A stretch of DNA of 64,000 bases, taken from assembly GCF_055900595.2 (NCBI RefSeq), contig NZ_CM148325.1. The stretch is one strand, 5' to 3'. Under the pieces are notes generated by a model. That model worked only from the letters and a program-made list of their open reading frames with translations. It made no database searches and was not told the origin of the DNA. Below are positions 8,503 through 10,673 of this stretch, piece after piece. The position numbers and the translations under genes were made by a program. Each line of letters starts with the position of its first letter. Position 1 is the stretch's first letter.

Positions 8503-9681
8503 ATGACTGCTGTAAGCCAAACCGAAACACGATCTTCTGCCAATTTTTCGCTTTTCCGCATCGCTTTTGCGGTTTTTCTCACCTACATGACCGTAGGGTT
8601 ACCATTGCCGGTTATCCCGCTGTTTGTTCATCATGAGCTGGGCTATGGCAACACCATGGTCGGGATTGCCGTCGGCATTCAGTTTTTGGCTACGGTGCTG
8701 ACGCGTGGCTATGCCGGGCGACTGGCCGATCAATATGGTGCAAAACGTTCGGCGCTTCAGGGGATGTTAGCTTGTGGTCTGGCGGGGGGCGCACTGCTGT
8801 TGGCGGCGATTTTGCCCGTCTCCGCACCGTTCAAATTTGCTCTGTTGGTCGTTGGACGTTTGATTCTTGGCTTTGGTGAAAGCCAGTTACTGACGGGGGC
8901 TCTGACCTGGGGATTGGGCATCGTTGGGCCAAAACATTCCGGCAAAGTGATGTCATGGAACGGAATGGCTATTTACGGTGCCCTCGCTGTTGGTGCACCG
9001 CTTGGCCTGTTGATTCATAGCCATTACGGTTTTGCTGCACTGGCGCTCACCACAATGGCATTACCCATACTGGCGTGGGCCTGTAACGGCACAGTGCGCA
9101 AAGTACCGGCCCTGGCGGGAGAACGTCCATCGCTGTGGAGCGTTGTCGGGCTTATCTGGAAACCAGGGTTAGGTCTGGCGCTACAAGGCGTGGGTTTTGC
9201 GGTTATCGGAACTTTCGTTTCGCTCTACTTTGCCAGCAAAGGATGGGCGATGGCGGGCTTTACTCTTACCGCGTTTGGCGGGGCATTTGTCGTGATGCGC
9301 GTAATGTTTGGCTGGATGCCGGACCGTTTTGGCGGTGTGAAAGTGGCGATTGTTTCTCTGCTTGTAGAAACTGTGGGCTTGTTGCTGCTCTGGCAAGCCC
9401 CAGGGGCGTGGGTCGCATTAGCGGGCGCGGCGTTAACCGGAGCTGGATGTTCGCTTATCTTTCCTGCGCTGGGCGTGGAGGTGGTTAAACGCGTCCCCTC
9501 ACAAGTTCGCGGCACCGCACTGGGCGGTTACGCCGCGTTTCAGGATATCGCCCTCGGCGTCTCCGGGCCGCTGGCGGGAATGCTGGCGACCACGTTTGGT
9601 TACTCTTCGGTATTTCTTGCCGGGGCGATCTCTGCGGTGCTGGGAATTATTGTCACGATACTGTCGTTTCGTCGGGGTTAA
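8503..9681 (+). CDS. yfcJ: MFS-family transporter
   Basis: 392-aa polytopic ORF with MFS signature GRLADQYG and 12 hydrophobic segments. Confidence 0.88.
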
Positions 9682-10673
9682 CGAACCAGCCAGACCAGCA
9701 TCAGGATAATCGCGACTAATAGTATCCACAGCGCGGGACGCGTTGCCATGTTTTGCAACGTGTCCATCATCGGTGGAAAAGGATTAAGCAGCGGTTGCAT
9801 ATCACGCGGATCAATCCCTTTAACCCGCCGTTGATAAAGCTGATTAAGGATATCCTCAGCCTGGGCTGAAGAAAGCGATGATTGTGCAGAAAGGCCATAT
9901 TTTTGCTGGATATATGCCGATAACGCCGCCAGTTCACTGGCATCTAAAGGTTGTTTCAGCGCCATCTGTAGTGATTCCAGCGTCGGCGTATTTTGCTGGC
10001 TTAGCGTCTGACGCGCCTGCAGCCAGGTCACCAGATGGTTAAACAGTTTCGCTGGAATTAACTCACCATCTTTCACCCCGGAAAGTTCCAGCATCGATTG
10101 CCAGATCTGCTTGCTGGGTTCTCCCGTTGCCGCCGCAAGTTTGGTAACCAGCTGTTTGAGCGTATTGTGCTCCGCCGGTAATAACGGACGGTCGGTCGCC
10201 TCGCGCTGCTGCGGTTGCGGGATAACCATCTTCCCTTCCTGCAACAGGGTGAGAATGGTTTTTAATTGCTCCGGTGAGAGCTGATTCAGTGGCGTCTGAC
10301 CAAAGTTATGACGAATATAATCCGTGACCGCCTGACGATTATTCCCCAGACGTAAATACTCACCCAATTGGGCTAAAAGCTGGCGGGCAGAATGGCTTTT
10401 TTGCGCGGTCAGCAAACGTTGCGCCAGATTATGCTCTGCGGCGGGAAAGTGACGCGAAAGCAGCGGCGAATCTCCCGACAGGCCAATATCATGCCTGATA
10501 CCCGCCCACAGTTCTGCTCTTTGCTGTTGCGTCAGCGAAGTCACTTTCGTCATTAAGCTTTCCAGCGAAGTACGTTGCTGACTGGATAAAGGCTGATTGC
10601 CCGCGCCAGACGGCAGGTTATCTCCCTGACCTGGTGGTTGCCCAGGAGGAGGGCCGGAAATAGGTTGTATCAT
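9678..10673 (-). CDS. flk: Flagellar regulator Flk (C-tail-anchored membrane protein)
   Basis: 331-aa ORF with proline/glutamine-rich N-terminus and a single C-terminal hydrophobic anchor [16 protein letters not shown]. Confidence 0.88.

Follow-up and report, generated by a model that had tools for sequence, protein, structure and literature searches.

Convergent yfcJ and flk genes of Escherichia coli share a four-base overlap of interlocked stop codons

The 64-kb stretch of DNA analysed here (the window) carries the genes yfcJ and flk, which converge on opposite strands and overlap by four base pairs. The yfcJ coding sequence (MFS transporter, 392 aa) occupies positions 8503..9681 of the + strand according to the ORF list, NCBIfam, Pfam and RefSeq. 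Its 3' end reads TTT CGT CGG GGT TAA, with the stop codon TAA at 9679-9681, and the translated protein closes with a final hydrophobic transmembrane helix followed by the residues FRRG. The flk coding sequence (flagella biosynthesis regulator Flk, 331 aa) is placed at 9678..10673 of the - strand by the ORF list, NCBIfam and RefSeq, and ends with TGG CTG GTT CGT TAA. Its stop codon is the reverse complement of the TTA at 9678-9680, and its last sense codon, CGT (Arg), is the complement of 9681-9683. From the translation, the last 20 codons of flk (9681..9740, - strand) encode a C-terminal membrane anchor, and any 3' UTR of yfcJ would lie antisense to this segment over its initial 60 nt.

Both gene products were compared with curated family models. 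YfcJ matches NCBIfam NF009048 with 703 bits (cut-off 364 bits) over profile positions 1-392 of 392, and Pfam MFS_1 with 123.5 bits. Flk matches the NCBIfam equivalog NF007987 with 507 bits (cut-off 353 bits) over profile positions 1-338 of 339; the Pfam set used contained no Flk model and gave two sub-threshold matches only, and NCBIfam was used instead. A sequence search found 666 Flk homologues. Both proteins are the products of genuine genes arranged tail to tail on opposite strands, and their ends agree with the ends of the families. The gene names and both stop positions proposed in the initial annotation are confirmed by the sequence, the ORF list and RefSeq. Because each stop is fixed by its reading frame and the family matches are full-length, the overlap cannot be argued away by reassigning starts or stops.

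The sequence at 9676-9683 is GGTTAACG. Within it, the tetramer TTAA at 9678..9681, of the general form YTAR, belongs to both genes, as seen from the sequence and the ORF list: bases 2-4 are the yfcJ stop codon, and bases 1-3, read as complement, are the flk stop codon. The central TA therefore serves both stop codons, and each outer base is also the wobble position of the final sense codon of one gene. Base 1 is at once the wobble base of the last yfcJ codon (GGT) and the third base of the flk stop, and base 4 is at once the complement of the wobble base of the last flk codon (CGT) and the third base of the yfcJ stop. The junction thus has the two properties of a YTAR 4-nt convergent stop-stop overlap, namely real genes on opposite strands and both first stops inside one tetramer. 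The overlap lies inside the hexamer palindrome GTTAAC (9677..9682), as the initial annotation had read it.

The same 4-bp flk/yfcJ overlap is annotated by RefSeq/PGAP in strain Z0117EC0005, in a K-12-like strain and in MG1655, where flk lies at 2437950..2438945 (+) and yfcJ at 2438942..2440120 (-). Of 5426 complete genomes, 5422 contain the stretch from 9300 to 10100, and E. coli strain Z0117EC0005 matches it with 100% identity. By k-mer mapping, the window differs from this strain by small indels past ~28 kb, and the junction region is collinear. Strain E17 of E. coli carries a deletion of yfcJ together with the C-terminus of flk. Six convergent gene pairs occur in the window, and flk/yfcJ is the only overlapping one, the other spacers being 32, 47, 58, 66 and 309 bp long. 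Co-directional 4-bp overlaps are common in the window (hisM/hisQ, nuoL/K, nuoK/J, nuoH/G and nuoF/E). The convergent spacer between mnmC and yfcL, also in the window, holds REP-type naRNA4 elements according to Rfam.

To follow the junction among relatives, species-representative genomes were scanned with the Flk alignment, which yielded 80 loci of ~9 kb each, and both genes were placed in each locus by tblastn and extended to the first in-frame stop. Four junction states were found. The exact 4-bp overlap is present in 30 of the 80 loci, from Escherichia, Citrobacter, Salmonella arizonae and diarizonae, Yokenella, Intestinirhabdus and three other Enterobacteriaceae. Another 22 loci, from Enterobacter, Lelliottia, Leclercia, Huaxiibacter, Pseudenterobacter, Cedecea and Buttiauxella, have a spacer of 18-93 bp (340 bp in one). 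The distance between flk and yfcJ is 0.7-3.4 kb in 14 loci (Kosakonia, Phytobacter, Superficieibacter and others), and yfcJ does not lie within 4 kb in the last 14, two of which stop just past flk. In five of the other loci of this last class, fabB faces flk after 49-123 bp, and yfcJ is absent from at least 12 species loci.

Where the overlap is kept, it varies in a very restricted manner. All four allowed tetramers occur in the 30 overlap loci, with TTAA in 15, TTAG in seven, CTAA in six and CTAG in two. When the window is added, giving 31 sequences from at least seven genera, position 1 is T in 23 and C in eight, positions 2-3 are TA in all 31, and position 4 is A in 22 and G in nine. The wobble positions beside the tetramer are scrambled among these 31 sequences, and the final residues vary as well (G, S, A, C, R or P in YfcJ; A, S, V, R, L, F or T in Flk), while the YTAR tetramer itself is conserved far beyond neutral expectation. 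A TGA stop is incompatible with a YTAR overlap, and TGA accounts for none of the 60 stops in the overlap loci versus 19 of the 44 stops in the spacer loci. Judged from this alignment, purifying selection on two interlocked stop codons accounts for the tetramer pattern, and nothing further is needed. The ends of both proteins stay at the same homologous position, to within about one residue, whether yfcJ abuts flk or a short spacer parts the genes. The C-terminal motifs are W-L-V-x in Flk and F-R-R/K-x in YfcJ, and the Flk motif is kept by most relatives in every junction class.

The material that separates the two stops in the other relatives is of several kinds. The spacers of Enterobacter, Lelliottia, Leclercia, Huaxiibacter and Pseudenterobacter consist of paired palindromes, GCCGGGTGGCG...CTTACCCGGCCTAC, which we take to be REP-like from their paired structure and their likeness to the E. 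coli REP consensus. They fold at -31 to -64 kcal/mol, and at -154 kcal/mol in the 340-bp Pseudenterobacter array; exact counts of REP-motif copies are uninformative in loci of this length. Cedecea, Buttiauxella and one Leclercia have the spacer filled by a different hairpin, CCCTCTCC...GGAGAGGG. Between flk and yfcJ, Kosakonia and Phytobacter carry a putative GH1-type glucosidase-like ORF, and Superficieibacter and one Citrobacter a putative PTS-EIIC-like ORF, both recognised by eye from their N-terminal sequences; flk retains a spacer of 30-88 bp in these insert loci. Counted by species, yfcJ lies no more than 4 kb downstream of flk in 52. REP-like palindromes or hairpins part the two stops in 22 of these, and in 14 more the stops are parted by an insertion of at least 700 bp, mostly an extra gene. 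Tight coupling of the two genes is not conserved, because REP-like elements, inserted genes or loss of yfcJ intervene in many relatives.

In a neighbour-joining tree of Flk only, rooted at its midpoint, the overlap state is scattered over several branches, and the branches with a spacer are marked by inserts of two unrelated kinds. Because of the scattered overlap branches and the two unrelated insert kinds, we infer that the overlap is ancestral and has been split independently. The REP-like inserts of the Enterobacter clade sit exactly between two regenerated stops, which could reflect integration of a REP element into a TA/TTAA target with target duplication.

At the E. coli junction there is no terminator between the genes, as the initial annotation had stated, a point that follows trivially from the lack of any intergenic DNA. 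The scan for intrinsic terminators returned nothing at the junction; the arrangement of a G+C-rich hairpin with A-tract and T-tract in a spacer does not occur here, the spacer being absent. On the minus strand, the consensus scan gave no candidate downstream of the flk stop. Since no DNA separates the genes, each RNA polymerase must run antisense into the other gene, and the 3' ends of the two mRNAs are therefore complementary, as has been published for MG1655. That survey names 165 convergent excludons, pairs with transcript overlap in at least 50% of the 58 MG1655 RNA-seq transcriptomes analysed, and flk-yfcJ is one of them (ExcludonFinder 2025, PMC12288877).

Base composition was examined in 40-nt bins on both sides of the junction. 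The RNA downstream of the flk stop, which is antisense to yfcJ, has C above G in most bins, with C/G of 13/7 in the first 40 nt and of 15/7 and 16/6 at 320-400 nt, and no sustained excess of C over G was seen downstream of the yfcJ stop. Rho loading is thus plausible for flk and uncertain for yfcJ. For these two genes the accessible tables of Adams et al. list a single bicyclomycin-sensitive region, at MG1655 2440043 (-), with a Rho score of 5.8, where 236 reads upstream and 15 downstream were counted without bicyclomycin (BCM) and 266 and 98 with it (PMC7815308). This region is situated 77 nt into the yfcJ ORF (about position 8580 of the window) and not at the junction. The low downstream coverage, 15 reads without BCM, suggests that yfcJ is weakly transcribed in LB, which is consistent with an absence of discrete 3' ends. 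The Term-seq/BCM tables of Adams et al., as far as accessible, contain nothing for flk and nothing that maps closer than ~250 nt to the junction (PMC7815308), and the accessible SMRT-Cappable-seq and TERMITe supplements hold no entry for flk or yfcJ; these are weak negatives, the tables and supplements being perhaps incomplete.

Taken together, the junction is in our judgement probably the closest possible packing of two convergent genes, with no dedicated signal, and we hold this reading with good confidence. The arrangement would persist since almost any change is expected to harm: a mutation in the TA would destroy both stops simultaneously, and both C-termini are presumably constrained, Flk by its membrane anchor and YfcJ by its last transmembrane helix and the basic residues behind it. 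Neutral changes would then be limited to T/C at position 1 and A/G at position 4. Termination is most likely diffuse, by Rho acting on untranslated RNA after ribosome release and/or by head-on collisions of polymerases, with no defined intrinsic terminator. If the two genes dampen each other's expression at all, this would be a by-product rather than a conserved function.

An alternative is that the abutment has been selected as a functional convergent excludon, in which the more strongly expressed gene represses the other through polymerase collision and RNase III cleavage of the 3'-end duplex. The presence of flk-yfcJ in the MG1655 excludome and the retention of the overlap in at least seven genera speak for it, as does the report in the same source that synteny is higher, and single-cell expression ratios are skewed, for excludon pairs taken as a class (PMC12288877). 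The stop-codon constraint, however, fully explains the conservation pattern, and both genes appear weakly expressed, only 15 reads having been counted without BCM over the 800 nt that follow the yfcJ 5' region; expression, dsRNA or RNase III data specific to this pair were not found in the sources covered. Conserved regulatory coupling is further disfavoured because the junction is so often split by REP-like elements or genes in relatives (22 of the 52 species and 14 more, respectively), and yfcJ is absent in at least 12 others. Such frequent insertion suggests that the overlap of the transcripts may have no regulatory consequence, and we consider a selected excludon unlikely. Of what the initial annotation proposed, overlapping transcription is supported by the published transcriptomes, and interference between these two genes is a possibility.

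A second alternative places a terminating or stabilising element for the yfcJ 3' end inside flk. An 11-bp inverted repeat, GGACGCGTTGC and GCAACGTGTCC separated by an 8-nt loop, lies at 9736..9765, within flk and 55 nt past the yfcJ stop, and according to the fold it forms a hairpin of -19.5 kcal/mol, which ranks it among the most stable 0.2% of all 34-mers of the window. MG1655 carries an identical stem. The only candidate on the + strand from the terminator scan, a weak one for yfcJ with a stem at 9729-9745 and the tail CCATGTTTTG, overlaps this hairpin. As points against the packing reading, this hairpin could define a 3' end, and the two segments on either side of the junction are predicted to be a little more stably folded than shuffled sequences (z = -2.1 and -2.2). 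In the collision model of bidirectional termination, which is more efficient for highly expressed pairs, a stem-loop in the nascent RNA is needed to fix the 3' ends (bioRxiv 10.1101/2022.10.23.513370). The repeat might act in E. coli as a pause, as a stem-loop that positions collisions, or as an exonuclease block after Rho termination. Against such a role, the main stem is followed by no U-tract, and the + strand of the window has about 22 sites of equal stability. The flk mRNA would contain this stem too, upstream of its own stop codon, and stopping transcription there would do harm. A 3' end at the corresponding MG1655 position (~2438858) is likewise not found in the accessible tables of Adams et al. 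The hairpin also decays outside E. coli: at the homologous offset it reaches -5.1 kcal/mol in E. albertii and -5.6 to -9.4 kcal/mol in the other Escherichia clades, and nothing comparable is seen in Citrobacter or Salmonella among the 30 overlap loci compared. As a conserved element it was rejected, being found at this offset in E. coli only. For yfcJ transcripts, 9736-9765 is kept as a candidate 3' stem-loop specific to E. coli, and we think it improbable that it stops or stabilises their 3' ends.

Both ideas can be joined in a scheme in which the abutment is a regulatory device, with overlapping 3' ends, the flk hairpin placing either the collisions or the yfcJ 3' ends, and mutual antagonism between YfcJ and Flk, a flagellar checkpoint protein. 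We give this combined scheme little credence.

The palindrome invites a further explanation, that GTTAAC is recognised by a protein, or by an RNase that attacks the duplex, and so marks a shared 3'-end processing point as the initial annotation had supposed. The hexamer is fully palindromic, its centre coincides with the junction, and it is retained in all Escherichia species sampled. Yet these are the only carriers: the hexamer is found in six of the 30 overlap loci, all Escherichia, and in the window, and it is absent from all 24 non-Escherichia overlap loci, where the flanking bases are g..a, g..g or c..a. Six base pairs are insufficient for specificity, and the Term-seq tables, in their accessible part, place no 3' ends at GTTAAC or elsewhere at the junction. 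The palindrome arises because both last codons are NGT, which accounts for the hexamer, and the comparison of sequences marks it as incidental. The proposal of a processing site is largely refuted by this lack of conservation and seems very improbable to us. The weakest reading, an annotation artefact in which one ORF is not real or ends elsewhere and no true overlap exists, is refuted, with no evidence found in its favour, by the agreement of both ORFs with curated full-length models to the final residue, by both stops being the first in-frame ones, and by the 30 species that conserve both ORFs with solely stop-preserving changes.

The practical meaning of tight packing at this junction is modest. 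The annotation of both gene ends is confirmed as right, and the locus offers a clean example of stops on opposite strands that lock each other, with T/C and A/G changes alone tolerated over at least seven genera. For engineering of the locus, any edit at 9678-9681 hits both genes. Deleting either gene takes away the 3' UTR of the other, and if the flk 3' end is deleted, the yfcJ 3' UTR loses its antisense partner. The finding itself matters little, being a case of common, catalogued tight packing with no sign of a special signal.

Several known systems resemble this junction to different degrees. REP/BIME elements are found in convergent spacers, and REP-like palindromes part the same two stops in Enterobacter, Lelliottia, Leclercia and Pseudenterobacter, but no such element occurs at the E. 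coli flk/yfcJ junction. The overlapping bidirectional terminators of Ju et al. 2019, as described in a later account, share with flk/yfcJ the convergent arrangement, the lack of a canonical intrinsic terminator and an inverted repeat near the gene boundary in E. coli; those elements, however, sit between the gene boundaries, whereas the only stem-loop of flk/yfcJ lies within the flk coding sequence (bioRxiv 10.1101/2022.10.23.513370). Termination by collision moreover favours highly expressed pairs, and flk and yfcJ appear weakly expressed. The convergent excludons are alike in having convergent neighbours and unavoidable overlap of transcripts, and flk-yfcJ itself is in the published MG1655 list (PMC12288877). 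The regulatory meaning of an excludon, though, comes from reciprocal expression and RNase III processing, beyond the transcript overlap listed for flk-yfcJ, and the tight junction of this pair is not conserved in many relatives. The nearest likeness is to the YTAR overlaps of Lillo and Krakauer (2007, PMC2174442), who found 1890 convergent overlaps in 58 genomes, 1218 of them of at least 5 nt, with the 4-nt overlaps CTAA, TTAA, CTAG and TTAG as the modal class. E. coli has 58 convergent overlaps in their survey, and an intrinsic terminator is predicted in only ~20% of the genes involved. The geometry is identical, with the modal length of 4 and TTAA among the four tetramers, and no essential difference exists. 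The flk/yfcJ junction is therefore already known, as a member of a well-described class and as a pair in a published list, and the present analysis adds to that class the phylogenetic record of one pair.

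Comparison of the flk loci of other genomes revealed that, in the Enterobacter clade, paired REP-like palindromes are placed exactly between the stops of flk and yfcJ (loci L030-L047, L057, L058, L067, L068, and L075), and the ancestral ends of both Flk and YfcJ are retained in the members carrying these spacers. Both stops may have been regenerated after insertion into the tetramer that the two stop codons share (YTAR, of the general form (T/C)TA(A/G)), with target duplication as a candidate route. A natural deletion was identified in E. coli strain E17 (L086, NZ_CM143886.1), which lacks the entire yfcJ gene and the C-terminus of Flk, leaving fabB about 80 bp from the truncated flk pseudogene. 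One further locus, L056 (CACSKA010000009.1), is titled 'Chryseobacterium sp. 18061' and has a flk/yfcJ locus of the Enterobacteriaceae type, with a junction tetramer identical to that of L062 ('Citrobacter sp. 18056') and near-identical flanks. Its assembly is probably mislabelled or contaminated.

Over positions 9300-10100 of the window, only 8 of the 5425 matching E. coli records reach at least 99% identity, and the remaining records share 95-99%, typically around 97.4%. Judged from these matches, the flk/yfcJ region of the window represents a minority allele or lineage. At the protein level, Flk shares 89% identity with its counterpart in E. albertii and about 62% with that in Citrobacter, and the corresponding values for YfcJ are 97% and about 87%. 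Flk is thus unusually fast-evolving. Inside flk, an 11-bp inverted repeat (9736-9765, -19.5 kcal/mol) ranks in the top 0.2% of the 34-mers of the window by stability; the MG1655 copy is identical, and E. albertii and the cryptic clades of Escherichia carry decayed forms of the repeat.

At its 5' end, the yfcJ open reading frame contains a terminator-like hairpin on the plus strand (8556-8580, codons ~18-26), with the sequence CCGCATCGCTTTTGCGG and then TTTTTCT. A region of Rho-dependent termination that is sensitive to bicyclomycin peaks at the same position; it was reported at MG1655 2440043(-), has a Rho score of 5.8, and gave 236 upstream and 15 downstream reads without bicyclomycin (PMC7815308, supplementary 2). 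This coincidence suggests that, in LB, most fabB read-through, or most of the transcription of yfcJ itself, ends early. Another terminator-like hairpin, with 11 pairs and the tail GTCTTTTCAG, is located on the minus strand of the fabB-yfcJ intergenic region (8407-8434), and no annotated minus-strand gene lies upstream of it.

Elsewhere in the window, Rfam matches identified three naRNA4 elements of the REP type (4614-4692, 4708-4786, and 17649-17719), two of which are within the 309-bp spacer of the convergent mnmC and yfcL genes. The sole mismatch to the near-identical strain Z0117EC0005 over the first 28 kb, at 4724, falls within a naRNA4 element. In the same strain, the annotation makes yfbL (M28 metallopeptidase, corresponding to ~59322-60290 of the window) a pseudogene with an internal stop. 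A nuoG RNA motif was also matched by Rfam on the plus strand within the nuo operon (48480-48522; 50.3 bits, gathering score 33). The convergent yfcH and rpnB genes, which are separated by a 47-bp spacer (26045-26093), are likewise on the published MG1655 list of excludons, convergent pairs with overlapping transcripts.
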